The notes below the pieces were generated by a model. It did no database searches, was not told where the DNA came from, and saw only the letters and a list, made by a program, of their open reading frames with translations. Made by a program: the position numbers and the translations under genes. From a virus, in the UHGV virus genome UHGV-0311442: a stretch of DNA of 64,000 bases; one strand, given 5' to 3'. Shown piece after piece: positions 1,944 through 14,513 of the stretch. The number at the start of each line of letters is the position of its first letter. Within the stretch, counting starts at the first letter, position 1.

Positions 1944-4900
1944 ATGCCGAGAGAAGACGCGGCGCAGTTTAACGGTACGCTAAGCACAGCGACGTACCCT
2001 AACCGATTTAACGTGGTCATTCCGCCTGAAGGACCTTTTTATCGTATCGGATTAAAACTCACAGTAGCCGACGATACCGCGCCTAACGGACGTCGTACTC
2101 TGATTGAGGGGTTGGACTACTATTTAGGCTATTACTTTAAAGAACTCGCAGAAGCTGAGCAAGATCAGATTTACGGCGGGTTCATGTTGCTGACCGCAAC
2201 AGAAATCGAATATGAGATTTTAGGGGTAGCACGCCAGTATCGTGTACCACAATCTGAAATCGGAAAGTTCTTAGTTCGTACTGACCTGAAAGACCCACGT
2301 AACGTGGACTGGTCAGAGTTAATGGCGTATGCGCCAGTTATTCAACCCATCGATCCTCCTGCTAACTTAGAAGAAGCTATTCTGAGGGATGAGGTTGTTA
2401 AAGCGTTAAACGATATCCGTAAGAAAATCGTTCAACGTTCAACAGAGTTAGATGCAGCGTTTACCGAAGTCACTAACCTGATTTACGAGAACGGTAAAAA
2501 GGTTTTCGACGAGGAGTTATACCAACACCACCTTAATCCTAACGCACACCAGTATACGACCACTGATGTTGGTGCCCTTCCGGTTTTGGGACGTGCTGTC
2601 GACGCTACAAAAGCGTTTGGACTGACGATTGACGAATTGGCTACGCTGATGGGTTCGGCGGGTATTGAGCAATCAGACGTTGATCAGTTAATGGGTGAAG
2701 CCCTTGGTACCGTTTACGGTCGTTGGGGTAGCACAAACGGTAACGAGCTGACGTTTAAAACCGCAGGCGGACACATCATCAGTATCCGTGGTGATAAGTG
2801 GTTAATTACCTCACCGCAACCGTTGGTGATTAAAGCAGACCAGGACAACAACGAATCGGGTTTGGCGGTTGAATTTAGTGCGGGACTGAATACGCTTTGG
2901 GTGCACTCTGGGACAGAACAGGATGTATTAGCGCCGGTTTACAACTCTGTGTATTTGGTTACACCAGAAATGGTGAACATGTACCTGACGTCTGTAACGT
3001 TACTTGAAGCAAATGCCTATTTCAAACCATCAGACAGCGTAAAACCATACGGTACAGCGAAGCAGTCTAATCCGCTAACGTTGAACGCGAATATTCCCAC
3101 AGCAACCGAGTCGGTTTATGGGGTGTTTTCGATTACGAATATCGCAACCTCCGTAGCACTAGGCACTGCTATTTCCCAAAAGGCGGTGACCGAATTAAAA
3201 GACCGGTTAGACTTGTACGTTGACGATGACTACACGGTTAACGGTAAAGGGTTTGTTAAGACAGGCGATAAAATGGTGTTAACCTTAACGAAAACCGATT
3301 TCGGTATCGATAAGATGGATAACACCATGCCGATCGCTAAACCGGTAACAAAAGCGTTAGCGAATGTGCTGAAAAATAAAAGTGTGAAGGAGCACACGCA
3401 CACTACCGCCGATTTGGATAATGTCCCGATTGGTAGTGCGACTGTAGATGGTATTTTACAGTTGTGGGATGCGATTGATGCCACGAATGATAAAGCCGTC
3501 ACGTCTCGTCAAGGGTGGTTGTTCGCAAAAGAGATCAAGAAGGTTTCCGATAAACTGAATACCATCTTACCTGCGTGGACTGTCGGTGGGGCGAAGTTCG
3601 GTAACAAAAACTTCTTACCCATTCCGGCACTCGGTAATTATTCAGGTTTTACAAAGAACCAGTCCTATCAGAAAGGCGTTGTAGGATATCAACAAGGTAA
3701 AGTTTATTCGTTACGTAATGCTTCTAATGGTGTACCTGGTACAGAGGCTATTTATTACGGTTATGCTGATATCAATACGTCGAATGCATTTGAGAACCCT
3801 CAGCAAACTTCGGTGAAATACCATCCTGCTGGGATGAGTAAATATCCTGGAGTGACCTTAAAAGCTATTTTGATCGGTGGTCAGGAAGCGATTATTTGTC
3901 TGGGTTCTGACAATAACCGTTATCTGGTCTTGTTCAATGGCTCGATGGACCACAGTAAGCACACAGTGGTGTGCCGTGTTACAATGCCGAATTATCGCGA
4001 TAATAGTCCCACTGGTTCAAACGAGATTCCGTGGAATCCTCGGCCAGAATCTGACGATGTTGTTCTGGTTGACGACCACGTTTACCTTCTTCGCTCCACG
4101 GTAAATAACGCTGCTTATGCCGTGGCGGCATGGCGTTTACGTAAAGCCGATTTGTCTACTAATGTTGCGTTAGAATTTGAACGTGTAACGTTAAATGGTG
4201 AAATGGGACAATTCGGAGATAACCTCTGCCTAAGAATTGGCCAGAAGACCGAAGAGTCGCAGACTGGTCAATTCTTCACGTATTACCCACCCGAGGCACG
4301 GGCTAAATGGACAATCGGTCACAACTTTGTCCATGGTCCAGAATGTAACCATGCTTGTGCGGTGCGTGACAGTGTGATTCGTGTGAATCATGTACCCACT
4401 GTGTGGTTTGCGGCTGCCGACGGTTCGACGATTAATTTCCGTCAATGGTCAACAAGTTTCACAATCGATACGTTAACGGGTAGAGTTACGTTGGAGGGTG
4501 CCGAACGTTTCCCCATTAAGGCTGATACTACCACACTGACGTTCGCGGATGGTTCAACTGTAGAAACCAGTCGTAAGTGGGGCGGTGGTCAAGCAAACAA
4601 TCGTTGTTTTGCAACGTATGCTAAACCTAACGGCACCGGAATGATGCTTTCCTGTTGGCAGGTTAACGATGCGGACCAGATGCCGAATGTTTCTATTAAA
4701 GGAACGCAAGGCAAAGAGTTTTTCGATTATTTGCGTTACGATAACCCGAACAATACCTCAGGCGAAGGAACGTTTACTTGGGATAAAGGCCGTGGTTCTA
4801 TCTATACCATCGGTCTTTCTCATCCTGTCGGTATCGGTGGTTCGAATAAGGTTTGGCTATCCAATCCACGCAACCGTTATACGATCGAAGTAGAAGTTGA

Positions 4901-7127
4901 CCCAAGTAAACCTTATGACGTTCCTGGATATAGCGGTTATGGCCCGAACAACAACCGTCGAGAAGTTGATGCAACCCTTTACGAACAGTTAAGCTGTATG
5001 GCTGCTTGCATGACTCCAGAGGAGCGTCACGGCCAGTTAAACGGTTGGTATTTGACGAAAGCGGAAACCTTCCCATATCGAAACATCTACGGTAACTTTG
5101 CCCTGTCATCAGAACGGCTGACGTTAGAGGAAGCGGATCGCCAGAAGATGATTAGGATGATTGTCGATGGTGCACCATCTGGTCAGGCAAACGGTTACGC
5201 GAACGAGCGCATCAGCGCAGCACACCAAAGCGGTAACGCGTTGTTTGCGCTCTGGTTGCTAGGCATTAACACTGTTTGTGAGTTCGACTTATTACAAGTC
5301 TCATGCATGAAAATCTTGAGTAACGGACGTCGAGTTCTCGACATCTATTATTTCATGGTGAGTCCGACTAAAGAAAACGGTTATCTACGTTTTAACTCGG
5401 CTACTTTCAAACTCGTTGATTGGTTCTTAGACCTTGATTACGGCTTAAGTTATCAGTCTCTGAGGGAAGAAGCGGGTAATAAAACGCGACGTGTAGGCCA
5501 GCCAATTTTTGCTTCTGCCGACGGTGTAAACTTCGGTCTATGGCTACCTTATACGCTGACAATACGGAATATCGGGGACCTAAATGCTTTGGGTTACGCT
5601 GCGAAGTATACCTTCGACCCTGGGTCGGGTTGGACTCGCGTTCCCGGTAAGTCACAATTGCGTCGGATGGCCCCTGCTCATAATCCCGAAACAGGCTGCT
5701 ACATGGGTGCGGGTAATTGGGACAAGATGGCACTAATTTTCTCTAAAGCAGATCGTGTCTTCTGTTCAGGTAACGCATATACAGCCGAAGAGTTCGTTAA
5801 TGACACCAGATTCACAACTGGGGGACAGGCGGTTATTATCGCTGGTGTGGAAACTGCCGAAGGTTGGATTCTATATTTGACGGAAGAGGTCAGGTTAGAT
5901 TTCGGTAGTAATAGCTATACATTACCGACGTGGTTGGTGGATTTAAGCAATGAATTCCCAGAAAACCATGCTAACCAGACGTTCTATGTTCATGCTGCTC
6001 TTGTAGGTTCGAAAGCTCAATATCAGATCGGTCTGGAAAAGCTGCCGGATACGAGTTCGCGATTATTTGTTGGTACAGTTACAACCGATAAAAAGCGCAT
6101 AGTTGCTATTAACATCGATAAAGTGAAACGGTTAGGCAGGGTTCGTGAATTAGAAGAACACGCTGCTGTTAGAGATCAGCACGACGTTGCAGCGGCGTAC
6201 GATCGAAAAACGGGTCCACTCCAAACCTTGGTTAACCAACCGCTGAAAGCCCCCACGGCATCTGCGGGCAAGGGTGCAGGGTATGCCGATGGTCAGAGAT
6301 GGAATGCGTTGACCGGGATCACAACACGTCCCAAACTGCCGATACAGGAAACCTACGCAGGTTATAAAAGTATCGGTAGAGTAGCGTATGAGAACTGCGC
6401 TGATCAGTTCTGGCAGAAAGCGGTCGCTGCAAACGTTGCAGCGGCTACTGCGTCTGAGAACAGTCAAGCGGCAGCCGCGAACATGAAGTGGTTGGGCGCG
6501 TATACGAAACCGACTACAGGTGCGAATGCATATCTGGCGCTGAGTCTGCGTGTTAAAGTGCCTGGTAATCCCGGCACCGCTAATCGTAGACTAAAAATCA
6601 GGCTTGCGGCTCCGACAGGTATAACCCAAGTTCGTTACGGGTTAAACCAGTCTGGTGGCACGATGACTGAACAGACAGTAACGTTAACTGCTAACAGTTA
6701 TCTGGAAAAAGAACACGCCGGATTTAAGCCAGCCGAAGAAGTCCGTGTACATGCTACGTTTGTCATTCCAAAAAATGAATACGATAGCTACCGTACGAAG
6801 TTCGGTGCTGTTCAGCTGATTGACGTTGAGTCGAACACTGTCATTAAACAGACAGATATCGACACACCGTTTATCGTGTATACCGACACGGAGTTAGCAG
6901 CGCAATCTGGTTTGGTGTATAAAGCGGTTAAGGGTCAGTTCCATCAACTCCCGTCTCAACCTGTCGTCATTGTAACTGATGGACAGACAGGGACTACGCC
7001 ACCGGTGAAAACCTCGTTTGCTGACGGGACATTAACGGTCTACGTGGCAACCACGTACGATGCGGTTAACCCAGCACAAACCCGCGATATCGATAAGCTC
7101 CAGTTCAATCTTATGTTTACATCTTAA
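1944..7127 (+). CDS. Giant (1727 aa) tail fibre / virion structural protein
   Basis: Uninterrupted 5.2-kb ORF with RBS aggag 8 nt upstream of ATG; sits directly upstream of fibre genes; no catalytic motif recognised. Confidence 0.8.
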   Translation: MPREDAAQFNGTLSTATYPNRFNVVIPPEGPFYRIGLKLTVADDTAPNGRRTLIEGLDYYLGYYFKELAEAEQDQIYGGFMLLTATEIEYEILGVARQYRVPQSEIGKFLVRTDLKDPRNVDWSELMAYAPVIQPIDPPANLEEAILRDEVVKALNDIRKKIVQRSTELDAAFTEVTNLIYENGKKVFDEELYQHHLNPNAHQYTTTDVGALPVLGRAVDATKAFGLTIDELATLMGSAGIEQSDVDQLMGEALGTVYGRWGSTNGNELTFKTAGGHIISIRGDKWLITSPQPLVIKADQDNNESGLAVEFSAGLNTLWVHSGTEQDVLAPVYNSVYLVTPEMVNMYLTSVTLLEANAYFKPSDSVKPYGTAKQSNPLTLNANIPTATESVYGVFSITNIATSVALGTAISQKAVTELKDRLDLYVDDDYTVNGKGFVKTGDKMVLTLTKTDFGIDKMDNTMPIAKPVTKALANVLKNKSVKEHTHTTADLDNVPIGSATVDGILQLWDAIDATNDKAVTSRQGWLFAKEIKKVSDKLNTILPAWTVGGAKFGNKNFLPIPALGNYSGFTKNQSYQKGVVGYQQGKVYSLRNASNGVPGTEAIYYGYADINTSNAFENPQQTSVKYHPAGMSKYPGVTLKAILIGGQEAIICLGSDNNRYLVLFNGSMDHSKHTVVCRVTMPNYRDNSPTGSNEIPWNPRPESDDVVLVDDHVYLLRSTVNNAAYAVAAWRLRKADLSTNVALEFERVTLNGEMGQFGDNLCLRIGQKTEESQTGQFFTYYPPEARAKWTIGHNFVHGPECNHACAVRDSVIRVNHVPTVWFAAADGSTINFRQWSTSFTIDTLTGRVTLEGAERFPIKADTTTLTFADGSTVETSRKWGGGQANNRCFATYAKPNGTGMMLSCWQVNDADQMPNVSIKGTQGKEFFDYLRYDNPNNTSGEGTFTWDKGRGSIYTIGLSHPVGIGGSNKVWLSNPRNRYTIEVEVDPSKPYDVPGYSGYGPNNNRREVDATLYEQLSCMAACMTPEERHGQLNGWYLTKAETFPYRNIYGNFALSSERLTLEEADRQKMIRMIVDGAPSGQANGYANERISAAHQSGNALFALWLLGINTVCEFDLLQVSCMKILSNGRRVLDIYYFMVSPTKENGYLRFNSATFKLVDWFLDLDYGLSYQSLREEAGNKTRRVGQPIFASADGVNFGLWLPYTLTIRNIGDLNALGYAAKYTFDPGSGWTRVPGKSQLRRMAPAHNPETGCYMGAGNWDKMALIFSKADRVFCSGNAYTAEEFVNDTRFTTGGQAVIIAGVETAEGWILYLTEEVRLDFGSNSYTLPTWLVDLSNEFPENHANQTFYVHAALVGSKAQYQIGLEKLPDTSSRLFVGTVTTDKKRIVAINIDKVKRLGRVRELEEHAAVRDQHDVAAAYDRKTGPLQTLVNQPLKAPTASAGKGAGYADGQRWNALTGITTRPKLPIQETYAGYKSIGRVAYENCADQFWQKAVAANVAAATASENSQAAAANMKWLGAYTKPTTGANAYLALSLRVKVPGNPGTANRRLKIRLAAPTGITQVRYGLNQSGGTMTEQTVTLTANSYLEKEHAGFKPAEEVRVHATFVIPKNEYDSYRTKFGAVQLIDVESNTVIKQTDIDTPFIVYTDTELAAQSGLVYKAVKGQFHQLPSQPVVIVTDGQTGTTPPVKTSFADGTLTVYVATTYDAVNPAQTRDIDKLQFNLMFTS

Positions 7128-7167
7128 CGCCACGAGACAAGGACGTCTCGGATTAAGGAGAGTGGCC

Positions 7168-8367
7168 ATGGCCTCCATTGTATATCAGTACCCTTTAGAT
7201 TTAACGGGAACCCTAACCTCTAACGCCGTGGAGCGTCAGGTTACGTTAGGTACAGGTAAAGTTAACCGTGCGTTTGCTTTTCCTGACGGACCGTTTTATG
7301 CTGATACGTTCCGCTTGCGGGTTGCCAATCGACCCGACGCGACGTATGAACGCGGAACGGACTATGAGTTGATTTTTGCACACCCGGGTTACGAGAAATT
7401 GACGAAGAACCGGGAAGTGGTAATGGCGGTTGTTGTAACGAACACCGCGATTCCGACCGATATCACGGTATCGGCGCAAGTAGTCGGTGGTCCGCAGTCT
7501 GCAAACGTGACTGCGATAGAACAGGCGATTGCCGAGTTGAATCTCGATAATCGAACTGTTGGCTTTAAAGACTTGCGAAATGTGCCGGACACGTTTCCTT
7601 CGGCACCAACGTATAAAGACGTCGGCGATATTTACGGCTTCGAATATATCATTACAGTGCTCGCTGGCATCAAAGATGCGATAACGGCGGGTGATGCTGT
7701 ACAGCTTGAGAACATCAAAGCGATTCTCGAAAGCCTGAAAAACGATTTCCTGGACGCGCTGAACGCGCACATTAACGCCACGGGTAATGTCCACCATCTG
7801 GATATTCATCAGGTTAACGGGTTAACAGAAACGGAGATCCGTGCACTTATCCGTGACGTACAATCTGCCATCGATGCAACCATTACTGATATTAATGCGT
7901 TGAAGAAAGCAGACGAAGCGTTAGGAAAACGTATTGATGCTGTTGTCAAATCTTTGGAAGCGTGGAACGACCAACTTAACATCGTTGCCCAAAACTACCA
8001 GAAGATGGCATTGGCATTGGCGAACCTAAATTCGCTAGTGTTACAGTTACAGAAAAATATCAACGATCTGAACACCAAACTCAACCAAGCGATTCAGCGC
8101 ATTGCTGCGTTAGAACAACGGGGTAATGAGTCCGATCAGAAAATTGATAATCTGCAACAAAACCTGGATGCGCTTAAACAACAGGTTGCGAATAACACGA
8201 ACGCAATCAGTCAGGCGAATCAGAACCTACAAAACCATATTGCGGCGGATAACCCGCACACAGGTTATCTCCACAAGAAATACGGCGGTGTGGTTCAGGC
8301 TCCAGTGCACGTTAACGCTAACTTGACGTCCCGTGATGACGTTCAGGCAGAAGCGGGTACGAAATAA
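7168..8367 (+). CDS. Coiled-coil fibre protein (fibritin / tail-fibre-like)
   Basis: RBS aaggagag then ATG at 7168 (ORF-track start 7060 lies inside the upstream gene); C-terminal half is heptad-rich, Q/N/L coiled coil. Confidence 0.75.
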   Translation: MASIVYQYPLDLTGTLTSNAVERQVTLGTGKVNRAFAFPDGPFYADTFRLRVANRPDATYERGTDYELIFAHPGYEKLTKNREVVMAVVVTNTAIPTDITVSAQVVGGPQSANVTAIEQAIAELNLDNRTVGFKDLRNVPDTFPSAPTYKDVGDIYGFEYIITVLAGIKDAITAGDAVQLENIKAILESLKNDFLDALNAHINATGNVHHLDIHQVNGLTETEIRALIRDVQSAIDATITDINALKKADEALGKRIDAVVKSLEAWNDQLNIVAQNYQKMALALANLNSLVLQLQKNINDLNTKLNQAIQRIAALEQRGNESDQKIDNLQQNLDALKQQVANNTNAISQANQNLQNHIAADNPHTGYLHKKYGGVVQAPVHVNANLTSRDDVQAEAGTK

Positions 8368-8376
8368 CTTTATTAC

Positions 8377-8422
8377 AGGAGGAACTATGCTTATGGGCGT
8401 AGTCCTCCATTCTTTTTTATTT
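8377..8422 (+). terminator. Rho-independent terminator separating the fibre genes from the Cys-rich peptide genes
   Basis: Stem ggaggaactatgc / gcgtagtcctcc followed by ttcttttttatttt. Confidence 0.6.
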
Positions 8423-8434
8423 TAAGGATACGTG

Positions 8435-8830
8435 ATGGCGATCAGTGTTAAAAATGTACGTGACCGAATCACCAACGTAGAGAACCAAATGGCAACTGGC
8501 CCACGTGTTGATCCGCAAGTTGCGTCGAAAGCACATAATGCCGCCGACACTTTTTCGGGTTGGACGCCAAGTCGGTTAGACTGCGGGGGAAGCTGTAGCT
8601 GGACGTGCTCAAACGGTTGTACGCATGGCTGTACGAGTTGTTCGGGCACCTGTACGTCGGTGTGTGTAGGTAGCTGCTCCTCTGCGTGCGGTAACCAGTG
8701 TACTGGATGTAGTTCAACGTGTTCTGGTGGCTGTTCAGGTTGCAGTGGGACCTGTGGAGGTGCTTGCTCGGGCCGTTGTTCTACGGGTTGTTCTGGTGCT
8801 TGCTCCGGTGGCTGTTCTGGCCCAACCTAA
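8435..8830 (+). CDS. Cys-rich repeat peptide 1 (~131 aa, ~26 Cys in CxxxC / CxxC repeats of C-S/T/G); candidate RiPP precursor or crosslinked structural protein
   Basis: RBS aagga 6 nt upstream of ATG; N-terminal ~50 aa leader-like and Cys-free, then the motif Y/L-D-C-G-G-S-C-S-W-T-C-S begins the Cys repeat core. Confidence 0.75.
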   Translation: MAISVKNVRDRITNVENQMATGPRVDPQVASKAHNAADTFSGWTPSRLDCGGSCSWTCSNGCTHGCTSCSGTCTSVCVGSCSSACGNQCTGCSSTCSGGCSGCSGTCGGACSGRCSTGCSGACSGGCSGPT

Positions 8831-8840
8831 GAGGTGAAAA

Positions 8841-9239
8841 ATGGCAATTGGATTACCTGCGCTACAAGCGCGGCTAAATAACATTGACAACACTGCATTG
8901 AAGAATACGGGTGCAGTACAAAACTATATTCGTGGGAAAGCGACGAACAACGCAGACCTATTCGGTGGGCAAGCTCGCAACCACTATGACTGCGGGGGAA
9001 GCTGTAGCTGGACCTGTTCGAGCTGTTCTGGTGGTTGTACAGGGAACGCATCAGGCGGCTGTGGCTCTTCCTGTTCTGCAAACTGTGTATCAGGTTGTAG
9101 CGCGGGCTGTAGTGGATGTTCGAATACCTGTTCTGGTGGCTGCTCAGGAAGCTGTACGGGGAGTTGTTCTAACTCGTGTGTAGGAAACTGTTCTGCAGGC
9201 TGCTCTGGTGCTTGCTCCGGTGGCTGTTCTGGGAGGTAA
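8841..9239 (+). CDS. Cys-rich repeat peptide 2 (132 aa), paralog of peptide 1
   Basis: RBS gaggtg; shares the YDCGGSCSWTCS motif and a 29-bp identical 3' DNA segment (GCSGACSGGCSG) with peptide 1. Confidence 0.75.
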   Translation: MAIGLPALQARLNNIDNTALKNTGAVQNYIRGKATNNADLFGGQARNHYDCGGSCSWTCSSCSGGCTGNASGGCGSSCSANCVSGCSAGCSGCSNTCSGGCSGSCTGSCSNSCVGNCSAGCSGACSGGCSGR

Positions 9240-9241
9240 TT

Positions 9242-9448
9242 GTGATTAGCCTTAAGAACCTTCGTGATCGGTTAGTAACAGCGGAAGGGTATATTACGAC
9301 CGCTAACGCAAACAACTATATTGCAAACCAGGGCACCGTGTCTTCAACCAATAACCTTGCCGGTTTACCTTTAAGCCATTATAACTGTAACGGCGGATGT
9401 AGCTGGTCGTGCAGTGGTAGCTGTAGTAAAGGTGCGGGGGGAAGGTAA
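9242..9448 (+). CDS. Cys-rich peptide 3 (68 aa, GTG start), short paralog with 4 Cys
   Basis: RBS gggagg 5 nt upstream of GTG 9242; N-terminus ISLKNLRDRL parallels peptide 1 (ISVKNVRDRI); core YNCNGGCSWSCSGSCS. Confidence 0.6.
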   Translation: MISLKNLRDRLVTAEGYITTANANNYIANQGTVSSTNNLAGLPLSHYNCNGGCSWSCSGSCSKGAGGR

Positions 9449-9597
9449 CTAAGCCCTCCAGTGGTAGTATGTCTATTACGCAATAACCGAGTTAATCGTA
9501 CGGGTTTACTACTGAGTTTCAAGTTACCGGTAGGCAATGGTGCGGTGGTTTCTATACCCTGAATGTCCGTTTGACCGTGAAATAATTGGAGCAATCA

Positions 9598-10485
9598 ATG
9601 AAGAATGATTTACATTTAGCGTACAAAACAATTTTCAATCATCCACTTCACATTTCTTCCCCTGATTCCGTACGTGCACACTTAGCAGATGAAGTTCGTC
9701 TGTTGACTCAGTTGCCGGGCGAATGGCCTAAAGTGCGCGGACGTTTCTTTACCGATCGTAAAAACTATCGTGTGGAAAATACGTTTAAGATTCGTGATCT
9801 GACGGCAGAAAGTGTAGTGGTCTTTACCGGTGACTCCGAGTTGCGTGGTAAACTGGTTGCGGGTAAATATTTCTTTAGTGACGGGATTTTGAATAACTCC
9901 GTAGATATGGAATTGTTCTTTACCCCATTTGAAGAAATGGGCGCAAAACCAGTTGCCCGTCGTTGGTGGTCGCCGGATTACTTAGGCTCGTTCCCGTATT
10001 TCTTTACCCTGGTAACACCAGAAACGAAGAACTATTTCGATACGGAATCGTATATCGAAATTGAAGGGTACGAAGCGTTAGGGATTAATTGCTTAGCGGA
10101 TTTAATGGCGTATAGCTATAAGTTCGTGTGGGATCGTGAACGTTCCGTGTGGGTTGCCCTGACGGATGAACACGAAATTACAAAACGCATCCGTAAGCCT
10201 TGGATGCAGCATTTGATTCAAACGCGTATTGGCGAGCATCCGTCAACAGAAGCGGATCTGGCAAAACTCGTTAGTTTCTTAATGACGAAAGTCACGTTAA
10301 CTGACGAAGAGAAAGCAGCAGTGTCGGCGGTGTTGGACCGTAACGTAACGTTAGCGGATTTAGAACGTTTAAATGTCCGTTATAAAGACCTTAATCGTAT
10401 TTTGGAAGCGTATAACTCTCCATTCTTGTTAACCCCTGGTGCTAACGTAGACGACGATCCTTTGTTCGCCATTGATTATATTTAA
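9598..10485 (+). CDS. Hypothetical protein inside the Cys-peptide / radical-SAM cluster (possible accessory or recognition factor)
   Basis: ORF with RBS ggag 6 nt upstream of ATG 9598 (ORF-track TTG at 9586 overlaps the RBS). Confidence 0.65.
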   Translation: MKNDLHLAYKTIFNHPLHISSPDSVRAHLADEVRLLTQLPGEWPKVRGRFFTDRKNYRVENTFKIRDLTAESVVVFTGDSELRGKLVAGKYFFSDGILNNSVDMELFFTPFEEMGAKPVARRWWSPDYLGSFPYFFTLVTPETKNYFDTESYIEIEGYEALGINCLADLMAYSYKFVWDRERSVWVALTDEHEITKRIRKPWMQHLIQTRIGEHPSTEADLAKLVSFLMTKVTLTDEEKAAVSAVLDRNVTLADLERLNVRYKDLNRILEAYNSPFLLTPGANVDDDPLFAIDYI

Positions 10486-10506
10486 AAACGACCGGAGTCA
10501 CCTGCA

Positions 10507-11430
10507 ATGACAACCAATGCAGAACCAAGGTTATCGAATCGTTTATACGATAAACCCACCGTATTGTCCGTAGTCGCTACGTCCAAGTGTAACCTGGATT
10601 GTAGCTTCTGCGGTGGAGCCTATTACATGAATCGTGAAGATTCTCCGCGAGAGTTTCAACGTGAGCGAATTTTGGAAGCGCTGGAAGCTAATCCAACCAT
10701 TACCGAAATTCAGTGGACGGGTGGTGAGCCATTACTGGCAACCCGTAAAATTGAGGCGTTTGTTGACGAATTAAAAGTGATTCGTCCAGAACTCAAACAC
10801 CAGTTGTATACCAATGGCTTAAAGATGCGTAAATCGCATCTCCCGTTGCTAAAACAGTTTGACAATGTCTACGTTAGCATCGATGGGTTTAAGTCGTCTG
10901 AGCGCCCGTTTATGCGCTTTATTGACGAAGGCTGTTACGAAGCACTGGAAACGATCTACGAGCTGGATAATGTCCAGACTTGGGGTGTCCTGACACGGGA
11001 CCGTTTAGGGGACAAACGCTGGCACGAAGATATTATTCAGCTGCACAGCGCGATTTACCATTACGGTTTCCGTGCAATGACGTTACTCTTAGATGCGAAA
11101 ATGCCAAAACCTTTATCGCCTGACCACGTCATGAACTTTATTTACGGCTACTATCAGGTTCAGGACAACATTGAACGTCTGAATGTAGTAAATGGACGTG
11201 AATGTGGCTTTACGGTAAGTAAAGTGTTTGAAGAAGGGTGTAACGTTTGCAGCGAAAGTCTTTGGATTAATGCAGACGGTGGTGAGCACCAACTCCAGAA
11301 TGCACCTAACGTTCTGGAATCGGGATGTAACCAACTGGCCTTCTCTATCGGTGTAGAGGCGTACGAATATATTCGTCGCGTAGTGATGGCAGGACGTAAT
11401 AGAGGGGCGGCAAATGAGCCAAGCAAATGA
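10507..11430 (+). CDS. Radical SAM enzyme (CxxxCxxC), candidate peptide-modifying maturase
   Basis: N-terminal CNLDCSFCGG cluster; GGEPLL SAM-binding motif; YTNG and SIDG motifs; four C-terminal Cys (possible twitch-like auxiliary cluster). Confidence 0.8.
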   Translation: MTTNAEPRLSNRLYDKPTVLSVVATSKCNLDCSFCGGAYYMNREDSPREFQRERILEALEANPTITEIQWTGGEPLLATRKIEAFVDELKVIRPELKHQLYTNGLKMRKSHLPLLKQFDNVYVSIDGFKSSERPFMRFIDEGCYEALETIYELDNVQTWGVLTRDRLGDKRWHEDIIQLHSAIYHYGFRAMTLLLDAKMPKPLSPDHVMNFIYGYYQVQDNIERLNVVNGRECGFTVSKVFEEGCNVCSESLWINADGGEHQLQNAPNVLESGCNQLAFSIGVEAYEYIRRVVMAGRNRGAANEPSK

Positions 11431-12736
11431 ATTCCCTAAGCAGTTAACGTATCAGATCGTAACCAACCTTTCGTGTAACCTGGACTGCGAATATTGTTAC
11501 GAACGTAAGTACCCGCGTAACAACAAAGCGGCCGACATTGTTGATTTCTTACACGCCTGTTTTGAACGTGATAAAAACGAACCGAATGTTGAAGTTATTA
11601 TCGACATTATCGGCGGTGAACCGTTCATGCAGCCTAAGTTGCTGCTGGCAGCGTTTGAAACCGCAGAGCAGTTGTGTAAAGAACACAACCGTCCGTTTAT
11701 GTTTAGTATCTCCACGAACGGGACCTTGTTAGATCGTCCGTTGAACCGTGAGATTGTAGAACGTTGGAAAGACAAACTTTCGGTTGGGGTTTCGATTGAT
11801 GGCTTGCCTGAGTCCCATGACCGTTATCGTATCTTCACAACAACGCGCCAGGGTTCTTACGAAGCCGCAGTACGTGGCTATAATTACTTAAAAGAGGTTG
11901 GCATTGCAGAACTCGGCGTAAAAGCGACCTTTACGTTAGAAACACTGCCGTTCTATGCTGCAGGGATGAAGTCATTAATTGACATTACTGGCGGTGGGAC
12001 AATTTCTGGGAACGTAACCTTCGAAGACGTTATGCCACGTAGCATGGCGACGTCAATCGCTTTACAGATGATGGATGTGATAGATTATTGGGTTGAGAAA
12101 GGATTACACACCAACCCACGTAATATCTTATCGCACATCATTCCAGAAGGGTTGGATTTCGATACGATTTGGGAACCGAACTGGCGTGACCAGTTACTGT
12201 ATAATGACACCGTACGGTTGAACCCAGAACGTTTACGTCCGTTCTGTGGGACGTTAACGCACATGACGTGCTTAGGATTTGACCGTAAGATCTTTGGCTG
12301 TAACCGCTTTATGTCAACGGTAACGTCGCGTTCTGCGGTGTTTGAGTTGGTAGGTCGGGAATTCGTCAGTCTGGACAACGGTAAATTGTTAGAAGAGATT
12401 CAAACGCAATATACCAACTACCCAGAGACCTGTTTAGGTTGTCCGATGAAACACGCTTGTGGTAGCTGTGCGGCGGCTTCTTACGAGAACGGGGAAGGAA
12501 CGTTAGAAGACCGTAAAGCGTATCACGCTGAACGTCGTCAGTGTGGCTGGACGACAGCGAAACTGATGGTGGCGGAATACTGGAAACAGAAGATGGGTAC
12601 GACGTCAGCAAAAGCGTTCCACGACACGAGCATGTGTTATTGCCCACGCTGTGTTCGTGAACGTGCCCAAAAGGAAAAATTATTAAGAGAAGCCAAAGAT
12701 GAAACCAATTCTGATCAACAATATTACGAAGCGTAG
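11414..12736 (+). CDS. Radical SAM enzyme with SPASM-like C-terminal domain, candidate peptide maturase
   Basis: CNLDCEYCY cluster; GGEPFM; STNGTLL; SIDGLPESHDRYR (SxDGxxxxHDxxR as in PqqE/anSME/AlbA-type enzymes); C-terminal CLGCPMKHACGSC plus further Cys; start overlaps upstream rSAM gene by 17 nt. Confidence 0.85.
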   Translation: MSQANEFPKQLTYQIVTNLSCNLDCEYCYERKYPRNNKAADIVDFLHACFERDKNEPNVEVIIDIIGGEPFMQPKLLLAAFETAEQLCKEHNRPFMFSISTNGTLLDRPLNREIVERWKDKLSVGVSIDGLPESHDRYRIFTTTRQGSYEAAVRGYNYLKEVGIAELGVKATFTLETLPFYAAGMKSLIDITGGGTISGNVTFEDVMPRSMATSIALQMMDVIDYWVEKGLHTNPRNILSHIIPEGLDFDTIWEPNWRDQLLYNDTVRLNPERLRPFCGTLTHMTCLGFDRKIFGCNRFMSTVTSRSAVFELVGREFVSLDNGKLLEEIQTQYTNYPETCLGCPMKHACGSCAAASYENGEGTLEDRKAYHAERRQCGWTTAKLMVAEYWKQKMGTTSAKAFHDTSMCYCPRCVRERAQKEKLLREAKDETNSDQQYYEA

Positions 12737-13271
12737 AATTCGACTTCTGGATAAGTTTCTGGAAAACAGTAAGCTATTCGGTTGTTATGTGGTGATTAAC
12801 GGTGAAGATTTTACCGATGACGTAAAACGCTTACTGATTCGTCACGGTGTGACTGTAATCATCCCAATGTACTGCACCGAACTTACTGACCTGTCGGTCG
12901 CGGAAATTGAAAAACGTAACCCAGGGTTTGAAGAACGGGTATTGGATTTCCCACGTCACAAAATTGCGTTTCTACGCCGCTCTTTAAGCGAACCCAGCGC
13001 AGAATCTATCACTGTGTTGGCATTGTCCTTCCCCGGCATTACTATCTTCGCAACACGTAACCCGAACTCACCGATTGATGGGTTTTACGATGAGCGAGAG
13101 AAATTTAATACCGTGATTTTTCCTGAGCTAACGCCAGAAGAATGCCAGGGTATCCGTATCGATTGGGAATCGGACTTCGACACAAGATTCCGTCATATCG
13201 ATTTTGAACTGTTAATCGAATTAGGGTTGATTAAAGGAGACGATGAATGTCTGCTACTGGTGAAGGCTTAA
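12699..13271 (+). CDS. Hypothetical protein (cluster-associated)
   Basis: ORF overlapping the 3' end of the rSAM gene; same operon. Confidence 0.55.
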   Translation: MKPILINNITKRRIRLLDKFLENSKLFGCYVVINGEDFTDDVKRLLIRHGVTVIIPMYCTELTDLSVAEIEKRNPGFEERVLDFPRHKIAFLRRSLSEPSAESITVLALSFPGITIFATRNPNSPIDGFYDEREKFNTVIFPELTPEECQGIRIDWESDFDTRFRHIDFELLIELGLIKGDDECLLLVKA

Positions 13272-13918
13272 CGAAAGAAGAAATCCGTCGCCGTTATTTT
13301 GCGCACGATTTACCGATTGACCGTCATGGTAACTACATGGAGAAAATCGGTAGTGAAGATCACGGCCGTACAGGGTTTTGTGCGTTACTGCACTATAAGT
13401 TGATTGATGGGATGTCTGATCGCGAAGCATTGGAACAAATGCGTAACTACGACATGTCTGAAATCGAAGCACGGTTTACGCTACAGAAAGCGAAAGACTT
13501 TGTTAACGACACGTTGGGGATTGACCTGGAAGAAATTCGTGCAGGTTTACGTTCCACGGTGCGGTACATCTTTACCGATGTTCAGAAAATTCTAAGCGCT
13601 CTGGAATTCCGTTATCAGGATGCGCGCTATGCTGAGATTCAGGTAGGTGATTTCACTTTCCAGGCAGATGAGAAGTCACAGGTAGCACTGAGTCGTTATA
13701 TCCAGTCAGAAACTGCGCCAGCGTATTGGTTAACGGCTAACAACACCCGTATCGAACCGTTTACGTTAGAACAGTGCAAGACGTTGCTGGCAGCAATCGT
13801 TGAGCGCGATCAAAGACTACACCACGCAATGTCTGAGCAGAAAAGAGAAGTCAGAGCTTGGGCTGAAGCACGTGATTACGATTCAATTAAAGCGTTTGCG
13901 TTAGAGCAAGGGCTGTAA
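13247..13918 (+). CDS. Hypothetical protein (cluster-associated)
   Basis: RBS aaggaga 6 nt upstream of ATG; last gene before the bidirectional terminator. Confidence 0.65.
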   Translation: MSATGEGLTKEEIRRRYFAHDLPIDRHGNYMEKIGSEDHGRTGFCALLHYKLIDGMSDREALEQMRNYDMSEIEARFTLQKAKDFVNDTLGIDLEEIRAGLRSTVRYIFTDVQKILSALEFRYQDARYAEIQVGDFTFQADEKSQVALSRYIQSETAPAYWLTANNTRIEPFTLEQCKTLLAAIVERDQRLHHAMSEQKREVRAWAEARDYDSIKAFALEQGL

Positions 13919-13939
13919 TCGACAGCGAAAAAAAATAGT

Positions 13940-13981
13940 ATACCTACCTCCTATTACGGGAGGTAGGTATTTTTATTTTTT
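13940..13981. terminator. Bidirectional rho-independent terminator between convergent genes
   Basis: Perfect 12-bp stem atacctacctcc / ggaggtaggtat flanked by an A-run upstream and a T-run downstream. Confidence 0.65.
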
Positions 13982-13982
13982 C

Positions 13983-14513
13983 TTAGGACGTAAAACCGTC
14001 CAGCTCACCGTTGGTGGTGGCCAGGTCAATACGATTATCAACAACTTTCGGCGTAATTACGAAAGTTGCCATTACACCTGGTTTATAACGGAGGTTCTTT
14101 TCAGTAACGGTGCACGTTACCGTACGCAGAGTGACGTTTTCATGTTCGTCTTTCTGGTCTTCGGTGTTGTACACAACGTCGCCTGGTGCGATAGCATCGT
14201 TCGGTTTAACTTTATTGATGTAATATTGTAACCAAGCGCGCAGTTCATTTTCTTGAACCCAGCGAGACAGATCGTCAGTTAGTTCAATACGGCCTACAAC
14301 ACCCGGTTCCAGACGATCGTAATGCAGTTCGATTGCACCTTTGAAATTCTCAGAACCTGGTAGTGCAGTCATGGTAACTTTGGTATTCTTACCTTCGCCT
14401 TCCAGCGCAGTAGGGAGACCAAAGGACACTTCTTTATCAGTTACCTGATGTGGTAGCTCAGTGTTAGCAGCATTATAAAGCGCGACCAACATCATCTGGT
14501 TAGTAGCGGCCAT
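13983..14513 (-). CDS. Paralog family A protein (176 aa), probable fibre-associated virion protein
   Basis: Tandem paralog of 14579..15109; both share architecture and C-terminal GELDGFT. Confidence 0.7.
   Translation of the reverse strand: MAATNQMMLVALYNAANTELPHQVTDKEVSFGLPTALEGEGKNTKVTMTALPGSENFKGAIELHYDRLEPGVVGRIELTDDLSRWVQENELRAWLQYYINKVKPNDAIAPGDVVYNTEDQKDEHENVTLRTVTCTVTEKNLRYKPGVMATFVITPKVVDNRIDLATTNGELDGFTS

Follow-up and report, generated by a model that had tools for sequence, protein, structure and literature searches.

Tandem cysteine-repeat genes beside two radical-SAM enzymes in an SPN3US-related jumbo phage: candidate fiber-like substrates for thioether cross-linking

Results

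Three tandem cysteine-repeat genes

In this work we analyzed a 64,000-nucleotide stretch of viral DNA (UHGV virus genome UHGV-0311442; hereafter the window) in which three adjacent plus-strand genes encode small cysteine (Cys)-rich proteins directly upstream of two radical S-adenosylmethionine (SAM) enzymes. From nucleotide comparison we assign the window phage to the jumbo phages related to Salmonella phage SPN3US (genus Seoulvirus); region 7000-14000 shares ~72% nucleotide identity with SPN3US-like genomes across the radical-SAM genes. Peptide gene 1 (p1; 8435-8830) has an ATG start and encodes 131 residues with 21 Cys, peptide gene 2 (p2; 8841-9239), likewise starting with ATG, encodes 132 residues with 20 Cys, and peptide gene 3 (p3; 9242-9448) starts with GTG and encodes only 68 residues with the 4 Cys of the entry motif. 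A Shine-Dalgarno-like sequence precedes each of the three, and an in-frame GTG lies at 8432, just 5' of the p1 ATG. The entry motif Y/L-D/N-C-G/N-G-S/G-C-S-W-T/S-C is common to p1, p2 and p3, and the C-terminal end GCSGACSGGCSG to p1 and p2. An earlier note, written by a model from the letters of the DNA, had described this tandem array with its entry motif and shared end, including the short 4-Cys third member with a GTG start, and open reading frames (ORFs) and motifs were all found as described. Its figure of about 20 further repeats behind the entry motif was too high, as the repeats are present but comprise about 17-18 Cys. The N-terminus, which begins MAISVKNVRDR in the window peptides and in which no signal sequence was detected, had been called leader-like. 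It is indeed free of Cys over 49 residues in p1, but its position at a tail-fiber motif, described below, allows another reading.

The Cys residues of all three proteins are arranged in a C-x3-C register, in p1 as a C-x3-C/C-x2-C pattern. Steps of 4 account for 17 of 20 Cys-to-Cys intervals in p1 and for 16 of 19 in p2, with an occasional spacing of 3 and a single one of 8 in p2. Both proteins thus consist of tandem C-x-x-x units of the CXXX type, and a spacing of 4 predominates family-wide. Between the Cys we found almost exclusively Ser, Gly, Thr, Ala and Asn; the cores lack Lys and nearly lack Arg. In a six-frame scan for runs of 6 or more Cys at intervals of 3-4 residues, p1 and p2 were the sole matches in the 64 kb window. 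All 21 Cys columns of p1 are invariant in an alignment of 12 related genomes, and comparison of p1 with the closest relative of the window, locus L017, yielded 14/6/65 substitutions by codon position, with 59 synonymous versus 11 non-synonymous codon changes. Because no other such run occurs in the window, the Cys are invariant and third positions are favored for change, the C-x3-C register of p1 and p2 exceeds chance. On these comparisons we regard p1, p2 and p3 as genuine genes under purifying selection. The earlier note had named lack of translation as an outcome that would speak against its view; codon-position bias and invariant Cys contradict it.

All three proteins match phrog_6085, a family whose function is not known (E values of 1.5e-40 for p1, 2.5e-39 for p2 and 2.3e-24 for p3). 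Against the CXXX-repeat target model TIGR04114, which has a cut-off of 20 bits, p2 scored 19.4 and p1 14.5 bits, p3 gave no match, and relatives carry PF27846. A PDB sequence search with p2 returned no match and no solved structure resembling the Cys tail.

Radical-SAM enzymes encoded downstream

Downstream of p3, the plus strand encodes a 295-residue accessory protein (9598..10485; phrog_8030; gp165 in SPN3US), radical-SAM enzyme 1 (10507..11430; 307 residues; Pfam Radical_SAM 6e-14) and the radical-SAM/SPASM enzyme 2 (11414..12736; 440 residues), our candidate for the main modifier given its matches to the TIGR04115 and PapB profiles. Enzyme 2 contains a CxxxCxxC motif (C21/C25/C28) followed by C278, C286, C296, C340, C343, C349, C352 and C377, all invariant in 16 sequences; it hence combines a radical-SAM core with the SPASM Cys pattern for two auxiliary clusters. 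Its best NCBIfam matches were PapB (NF047865, 116.8 bits) and TIGR04115 (114.7 bits, model positions 3-345 of 359), and the SCIFF maturase model followed with 59.6 bits (cut-off 425). Along the TIGR04115 model, scores decrease from 634.6 bits for a bacterial operon over phage loci L021 (430.6, above the cut-off of 350), L048 (290.5), L086 (202) and L018 (157) to 114.7 in the window. Because these scores form a graded series, we place enzyme 2 as a divergent branch of the CXXX-repeat maturase (TIGR04115) lineage. The target of the phage homolog in L048 reached 26.3 bits with TIGR04114.

The closest solved relative of enzyme 2 is CteB (5WGG, 5.8e-14). Enzyme 2 begins at the radical-SAM core, and its alignment opens at CteB residue 105, with ~100 N-terminal residues missing. 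The N-terminal region of CteB binds the leader. As enzyme 2 does without this region and the N-terminal domains of its targets are very diverse, it is plausible that it works independently of a leader.

Enzyme 1 carries its CxxxCxxC motif at C28/C32/C35 and conserved C-terminal Cys at C245, C248 and C274; among solved structures, SkfB (6EFN) is closest, with a match over the core only at 3e-6. A TIGR04119 second maturase was not found in the window operon, where the 295-residue protein and a further protein of 190 residues have no NCBIfam match. We also considered enzyme 1 as a substitute for TIGR04119 and rejected this, since it has no similarity to the TIGR04119 protein of the bacterial operon L089. 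In the subtype with two radical-SAM enzymes, the 295-residue protein recurs as a conserved third component; it gave a good structure model without a PDB match. In L017, whose enzyme 2 is 93% identical to that of the window, an additional 303-residue paralog of enzyme 1 is encoded at 3576-4487 between p1 and p2; the window has no such gene.

Co-occurrence of repeat genes and enzyme 2 across viruses

We searched IMG/VR with an alignment of enzyme 2 relatives and kept 80 viral loci. By the same six-frame scan, a C-x3-C-repeat ORF was found near enzyme 2 in 76 of them, always on the enzyme strand, at a median distance of ~0.9 kb and a maximum of 2.9 kb. Opposite strand and rest of the window served as controls and gave 0 matches each, for the opposite strand over 1.07 Mb of loci; a reversed-sequence control with 16 matches was discarded because TGT is identical when read backwards. 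The pairing of a Cys-repeat target with enzyme 2 is general across viruses. In several loci, the two genes lie 3 nucleotides apart or overlap, and in others, from gut phages, a ~194-residue protein is encoded between them. We rejected the latter as a relative of the 295-residue protein (HHalign probability 0.1%). Repeat proteins contain up to 78 Cys.

The T7-like phage loci L003/L004 encode, in this order, a tail-fiber N-terminal domain protein, a 118-residue protein, a 206-residue Cys-repeat protein, a 238-residue protein and a 668-residue fusion. The fusion joins an enzyme-1-like half to a C-terminal enzyme-2-like half that is 36% identical to window enzyme 2 (E 1e-61), and the 238-residue protein matches the profile of the 295-residue protein (HHalign probability 80%, E 1.4e-5). 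Because these L003 counterparts match, a four-part cassette of target, 295-like protein, enzyme 1 and enzyme 2 is common to a jumbo myovirus and a podovirus.

The search for C-x3-C-repeat homologs that the earlier note had proposed thus found them in unrelated phages and, furthermore, in the bacterial operon L089 (6001-11374). This operon encodes a target with a twin-arginine translocation (Tat) signal (QSRRQFFKKAAK), a 197-residue protein, a TIGR04115 enzyme, a TIGR04119 maturase, a 91-residue protein, TatA and TatC; its product appears to be exported in folded form via the dedicated Tat system.

Two loci stood out in other respects. The most extreme member seen, L078 (8798-11260 of a 246-kb viral contig), has two giant neighboring ORFs of 387 residues with 52 Cys and of 421 residues with 78 Cys beside several radical-SAM-like ORFs. 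In L005 and L006 (ENA metagenome contigs of 87.6 and 34 kb), the pair of Cys-repeat and radical-SAM genes belongs to a phage that reads TAG as sense: seven of its genes contain 26 in-frame TAGs and all end in TAA or TGA, and at one of these sites the database protein reads Gln. Upstream, a giant protein that contains Mtd_N is encoded.

Relation to tail fibers

The window genes lie in a baseplate/tail-fiber module, behind orthologs of SPN3US gp168 and gp167, and the corresponding genes of L003, L048 and L058 are likewise found in such modules. Across the retrieved loci, the Cys gene usually lies behind baseplate or tail-fiber genes, and in those of gut phages behind baseplate-wedge and tail-fiber genes. 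Fiber similarity is also found in homologs of the Cys-repeat proteins. Homologs of p2 with 185-230 residues have N-terminal parts matching tail-fiber PHROGs (1.2e-7, 1.5e-4), and another Cys-repeat homolog has a tail-protein or galactose-binding-like N-terminus. An N-terminal domain ahead of such repeats matched a tail-fiber or tail PHROG at 6e-12. A fiber-like protein of 568 residues in L018 ends in GGQPPDFYTCGGSCSWSC and more C-x3-C units, with 30 Cys in total. In L003, the 118-residue paralog shares the N-terminal domain, followed by collagen repeats in place of Cys repeats.

The segment preceding the first Cys aligns with the widespread tail-fiber motif D-A-D-T-L-D-G-x-H, and homologs P0012 and P0021 hold a literal DADTLDGQH (DADTLDGQHGSYYRC). 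Because the N-terminus spans the position of this motif and the maturase lacks the leader-binding region of CteB, the leader-like part may be a fiber anchor rather than a cleaved leader. Close relatives of p3 (P0034, P0203, P0207) carry differing domains of 80-150 residues after the 4-Cys motif; a constant anchor with exchanged distal domains is typical of receptor-binding proteins.

A library search with p3 also matched proteins of 865-2602 residues in up to 10 stretches (P0211, P0216, P0218, P0223). We rejected these as homologs and take the matches to be compositional or at motif level. The proteins contain Bacteroidetes-type repeats (...VTCNGANDGT..., ...TNVTCNGANDGTI...YEYSINNG...), and the resemblance is probably that of a motif around C-N-G.

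Orthologs and history of the paralogs

The p1/p2/p3 trio occurs in the same order in 14 of 14 SPN3US-like genomes or contigs examined. In SPN3US itself (L001, NC_027402) the orthologs lie at 7950-8342, 8353-8757 and 8773-8979, and in Erwinia phage pEa_SNUABM_29 (L002, MW812339) those of p1 and p2 at 7952-8344 and 8354-8755. Each paralog clusters with its own positional ortholog, and Cys numbers are fixed (21; 20-23). Because each paralog has its own ortholog in all 14, we consider the triplication to be old, predating the SPN3US-like clade, which contradicts the recent duplication proposed in the earlier note.

The identical DNA segments from which the earlier note had argued are real: p1 and p2 share exactly 29 bp (8792-8820 / 9204-9232) and 26 bp (8579-8604 / 8988-9013), and furthermore 14 bp (8720-8733 / 9129-9142). 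L017 has a 32-bp identical patch at the entry motif, while SPN3US and others have at most 10-20 bp despite the same peptide ends. Long patches confined to the lineage of the window are best explained by local gene conversion. In this form the suggested recombination is partly supported by the sequences. Conserved ends around variable cores, as the earlier note had put it, describe the alignment only weakly. At non-Cys positions the majority-residue fraction is 0.65 in the middles versus 0.71-0.75 at the ends, and x positions drift among S/G/T/A/N slightly more in the middles, but the Cys scaffold is invariant. Judged from these alignments, the trio is not a hypervariable cassette.

In remoter jumbo-phage relatives (L014, L015 and L016, at ~4940-5170), p3 orthologs retain just the first two Cys and the Trp, e.g., YRCNGSCSWTSSGG; the minimal conserved p3 core is thus C-x3-C-S-W.

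Gene block and neighbors

Upstream of p1, the plus strand encodes a 1727-residue ortholog of SPN3US gp168 (1944..7127; assigned by synteny), a baseplate/tail-fiber candidate outside the cassette, and a coiled-coil protein of ~400 residues orthologous to gp167 (7165..8367; the longest ORF starts at 7060), a non-head virion protein. In SPN3US, gp168 and gp167 were found in virions, and gp168 was termed a baseplate/tail-fiber candidate (PMC5694885); the virion mass-spectrometry table lists gp167 with an SC/M of 1.90. The gp167-like gene is hence the final proven structural gene ahead of the cassette. Between it and p1 lies a plus-strand, terminator-like hairpin with a U-run (8378..8422; -21.4 kcal/mol, z = -5.2 versus shuffles), which a simple terminator scan overlooked, probably owing to its imperfect stem.

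Behind enzyme 2 follow, on the plus strand, the 190-residue protein (12699..13271; phrog_7988; SPN3US gp162), which is restricted to the SPN3US-like clade and co-oriented but of uncertain membership in the cassette, and as final gene of the plus-strand block a 223-residue DUF4376 protein (13247..13918; SPN3US gp161; Pfam DUF4376 4.8e-11) with weak tail-fiber PHROG matches (phrog_1807, tail fiber, 2.5e-4). From p1 to the DUF4376 gene, the cassette thus forms a same-strand block with terminator-like hairpins at both borders. The strong distal hairpin (13940..13970) has 13 pairs and T-runs on both strands; it resembles a perfect bidirectional terminator and separates two convergent gene blocks. 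Beyond it, from 14000 to 64000, genes are mostly on the minus strand and G+C is lower (about 0.40-0.46).

We found no protease or transporter family in the block or among the SPN3US neighbor genes, and the cluster contains no leader-binding (RRE) domain, leader protease or exporter. In SPN3US virions, gp167-gp173 were detected and gp161-gp166 were not. That the enzymes and gp165 are missing from virions suits maturation or assembly factors.

Discussion

Our analyses lead us to a reading that we hold to be slightly better than an even bet: p1, p2 and p3 would be fiber-like proteins in which the adjoining radical-SAM enzymes cross-link the Cys tails, probably through thioethers, and not precursors of a cleaved, secreted peptide. 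Each protein would consist of a helical N-terminal part that ends at the tail-fiber motif and of a tail rich in Gly, Ser and Thr in which every fourth residue is a Cys. These tails would be the substrates of the downstream enzymes, with enzyme 2 as main modifier and with enzyme 1 and the 295-residue accessory protein assisting it. Each Cys thiol could become linked to a neighboring residue by a carbon-sulfur (thioether) bond; we consider a series of thioether cross-links the likeliest product because the nearest characterized relatives of both enzymes form Cys-sulfur-to-carbon bonds. The tail would become a covalently stapled, redox-insensitive rod or knob that would be formed in the reducing cytoplasm, in which disulfides cannot arise, and we infer that such a staple would do for the fiber what disulfides cannot. 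The product would stay on its N-terminal part, act in or on the tail-fiber/baseplate apparatus and probably be neither cut nor exported. A cleaved, secreted peptide is disfavored because no protease or exporter is encoded nearby. Modification as such, its thioether nature, the carbon used and incorporation into the virion are all what we infer from this arrangement. The term precursor-like cassette, introduced in the earlier note, is in agreement with genes that lie directly upstream of two radical-SAM enzymes and with the pairing in 76 of 80 loci.

Several observations weigh against the cross-linked fiber. The cores have no Asp or Glu acceptors of the PapA kind, and the lone D precedes the first Cys. 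Family-wide, there is no Gly-free x position, with Gly at 14% of x1, 53% of x2 and 31% of x3. Because Gly is frequent at every x and acidic acceptors are missing, the sequences do not allow each unit to use a beta- or gamma-carbon acceptor at a fixed place. The bond may instead run to an alpha-carbon or to the next Cys residue, or modification may be partial. The earlier note had suggested comparing the Cys spacing with known sactionine or ranthionine acceptor patterns; neither acceptor pattern was found, as the cores have no fixed side-chain acceptor and no Cys-free half. Enzyme 2, furthermore, scores well under the cut-offs of TIGR04115 (350 bits) and PapB (340 bits). PHROG matches of p1, p2 and p3 are limited to phrog_6085 and include no tail-fiber family. 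An AlphaFold model of p2, built with 22 homologs, has a predicted local distance difference test score of 49.8 overall and of ~44 in the Cys tail, i.e., no confident fold. The three Cys ORFs are also absent from the SPN3US protein list behind the virion mass spectrometry; lying outside the search database, they are a point on which these proteomics are uninformative. Finally, short length and a leader-like N-terminus would equally fit a classical cleaved peptide.

The closest known system is the CXXX-repeat system, with TIGR04114/PF27846 as target and TIGR04115 as maturase. It shares with the window a Cys at every fourth residue, small residues in between and an adjoining same-strand SPASM-type gene; the alignment of enzyme 2 with TIGR04115 spans the full length, and the highest score among phage relatives is 430.6 bits. 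In contrast, the window has a second radical-SAM enzyme and the 295-residue protein in place of TIGR04119. Its targets, unlike that of the bacterial operon L089, have no Tat signal and are not accompanied by TatA/TatC genes, and they have fiber-like N-termini in a tail-fiber module. The CXXX-repeat system is defined bioinformatically, and our literature search found no experimental study of it.

Among characterized enzymes, the ranthipeptide maturases PapB (freyrasin) and CteB (SCIFF/thermocellin) are likewise radical-SAM/SPASM enzymes, and they introduce Cys-sulfur-to-carbon thioethers into Cys-rich peptides. PapA, with its repeated C-x3-D units, has the same ring spacing. PapB ties as best NCBIfam match of enzyme 2 and CteB is its closest solved structure, but enzyme 2 remains far under the cut-offs and lacks the leader-binding region of CteB. 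The fixed acceptor of their substrates (C-x3-D/E in PapA, Thr in SCIFF) does not recur in the window cores, and the substrates of the phage family differ from theirs in being fused to large proteins and in containing as many as 78 Cys. The alpha-carbon thioethers made by sactipeptide maturases such as SkfB and AlbA would tolerate Gly at any x position, and SkfB is the closest, although weak, solved relative of enzyme 1. In the hairpin of sactipeptides, one half supplies the Cys donors and the other, free of Cys, the acceptors. In the window proteins, by contrast, Cys residues continue from the entry motif up to the C-terminus and leave no Cys-free acceptor half. Collagen-like tail fibers resemble the window proteins in their position in a tail-fiber module and in a low-complexity repeat after an N-terminal anchor, and in L003 one paralog has collagen repeats at this place. 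The isopeptide cross-links of the HK97 capsid share the idea of a covalently stabilized virion protein. Both, however, fold or cross-link unaided, whereas the window encodes dedicated radical enzymes and a period of 4 with Cys instead of Gly-X-Y.

The cross-linked fiber has to be weighed against other functions for the same genes. A leader-like part with a Cys-rich core, encoded in tandem precursor-like paralogs beside radical-SAM/SPASM enzymes, recalls a classical ribosomal natural product, from which a host or unrecognized protease would remove the ~50-residue leader and whose cross-linked core would be freed at lysis as an antimicrobial, a signal or a metal binder of benefit to phage or host. 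Lys-free, nearly Arg-free cores are found in many such peptides, and the bacterial counterpart, with its Tat-signal target and dedicated TatA/TatC, appears to be exported. We nevertheless consider this unlikely: neither the block nor its surroundings encode a protease or transporter, the maturase has no recognizable leader-binding domain, the genes as a rule lie in baseplate/fiber modules, the same Cys repeats form the C-termini of 185-568-residue proteins with tail-fiber domains, and p3 relatives continue with folded domains behind the Cys motif. In other phages, fusion partners of the repeats include fiber domains as well as distal C-terminal domains. This suggests a permanent structural role and also argues against the still less probable view that the Cys proteins, possibly modified, are a transient scaffold, ruler or chaperone missing from the finished particle. 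They have no similarity to known tail-fiber assembly proteins. Such an assembly factor would be in agreement with downstream gp161-gp165 all being non-virion, with the ruler-like, strictly conserved Cys number and length (21, 20-23) and with the terminator-like hairpin that separates the Cys genes from the last proven structural gene.

A further reading dispenses with enzymatic modification. The repeats would then be a Cys-rich knob that holds metal ions or iron-sulfur clusters or becomes disulfide-bonded once the cell has lysed, and the enzymes would serve another substrate. The Cys density is like that of metal-binding proteins, the AlphaFold model is unstructured without ligands, and the literature search found no demonstrated modification for any CXXX family member. 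Yet the same-strand co-occurrence in 76 of 80 loci, with genes often abutting, is hard to explain without an enzyme-substrate relation, and curators list the family as a target of radical-SAM enzymes (TIGR04114/PF27846). Metallothioneins have C-x-C or C-C patterns, which the strict period of 4 does not resemble. We thus consider an unmodified knob improbable, even more so than an assembly factor. The earlier note had held that a Cys-rich knob of a standard fiber protein, with characterized homologs free of modification, would speak against it; homologous repeats do occur at tail-fiber-like C-termini, but none of these proteins is characterized, and they too are paired with radical-SAM genes. 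That repeat-rich DNA merely gives open frames at this locus, the true gene being the SPN3US-annotated frame (gp166 / ACQ60_gp100), is practically negligible in our view. GenBank and RefSeq do use a different frame over SPN3US p2 and have nothing over p1, and other frames are open as well. Against this stand third-codon-position bias and synonymous excess in the Cys frame, Cys columns invariant in 12 genomes, ribosome-binding sites, PHROG and NCBIfam matches in the Cys frame and homologs in unrelated phages.

Should the cross-linked fiber hold for the window, we may speculate further. Many phages, among them jumbo myoviruses, T7-like podoviruses, gut phages and TAG-recoded phages, could staple the Cys tails of their fibers so that thioether rings follow one another like a ladder. 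Such an enzyme-built fibrous protein would represent a new architecture, and a virion component cross-linked by radical enzymes would be the first of its kind, although we rate this generalization somewhat below even. In the clade of the window, the chains of p1 (21 Cys), p2 (20 Cys) and p3 (4 Cys) may form a joint assembly. Catalogue entries already exist for the target and maturase families (TIGR04114/04115, PF27846, phrog_6085). Our literature search found no experimental work on the Cys-repeat/radical-SAM system and no mention of its phage tail-fiber context, and enzyme-made cross-links in fiber-like phage proteins have not been described so far. If the reading is correct, radical-SAM peptide chemistry and phage structure, which were unconnected before, would meet, phages would build their host-recognition apparatus partly with cytoplasmic, post-translational carbon-sulfur cross-links, and the phage context would offer a substrate and a role for the uncharacterized CXXX-repeat family. 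Stable scaffolds and peptide stapling could then also profit from long, regular Cys repeats stapled by enzymes and from a maturase that probably needs no leader.

SPN3US would then be a tractable model for this system, as genetics and proteomics exist. The three conserved genes should be added to its reference annotation, where they are missing or mis-framed: the GenBank and RefSeq records have a wrong-frame coding sequence over p2 (gp166 / ACQ60_gp100, locus 8426-8761) and leave p1 and p3 unannotated. In the record of pEa_SNUABM_29, p3 alone is annotated, and two opposite-strand coding sequences cover p1 and p2.

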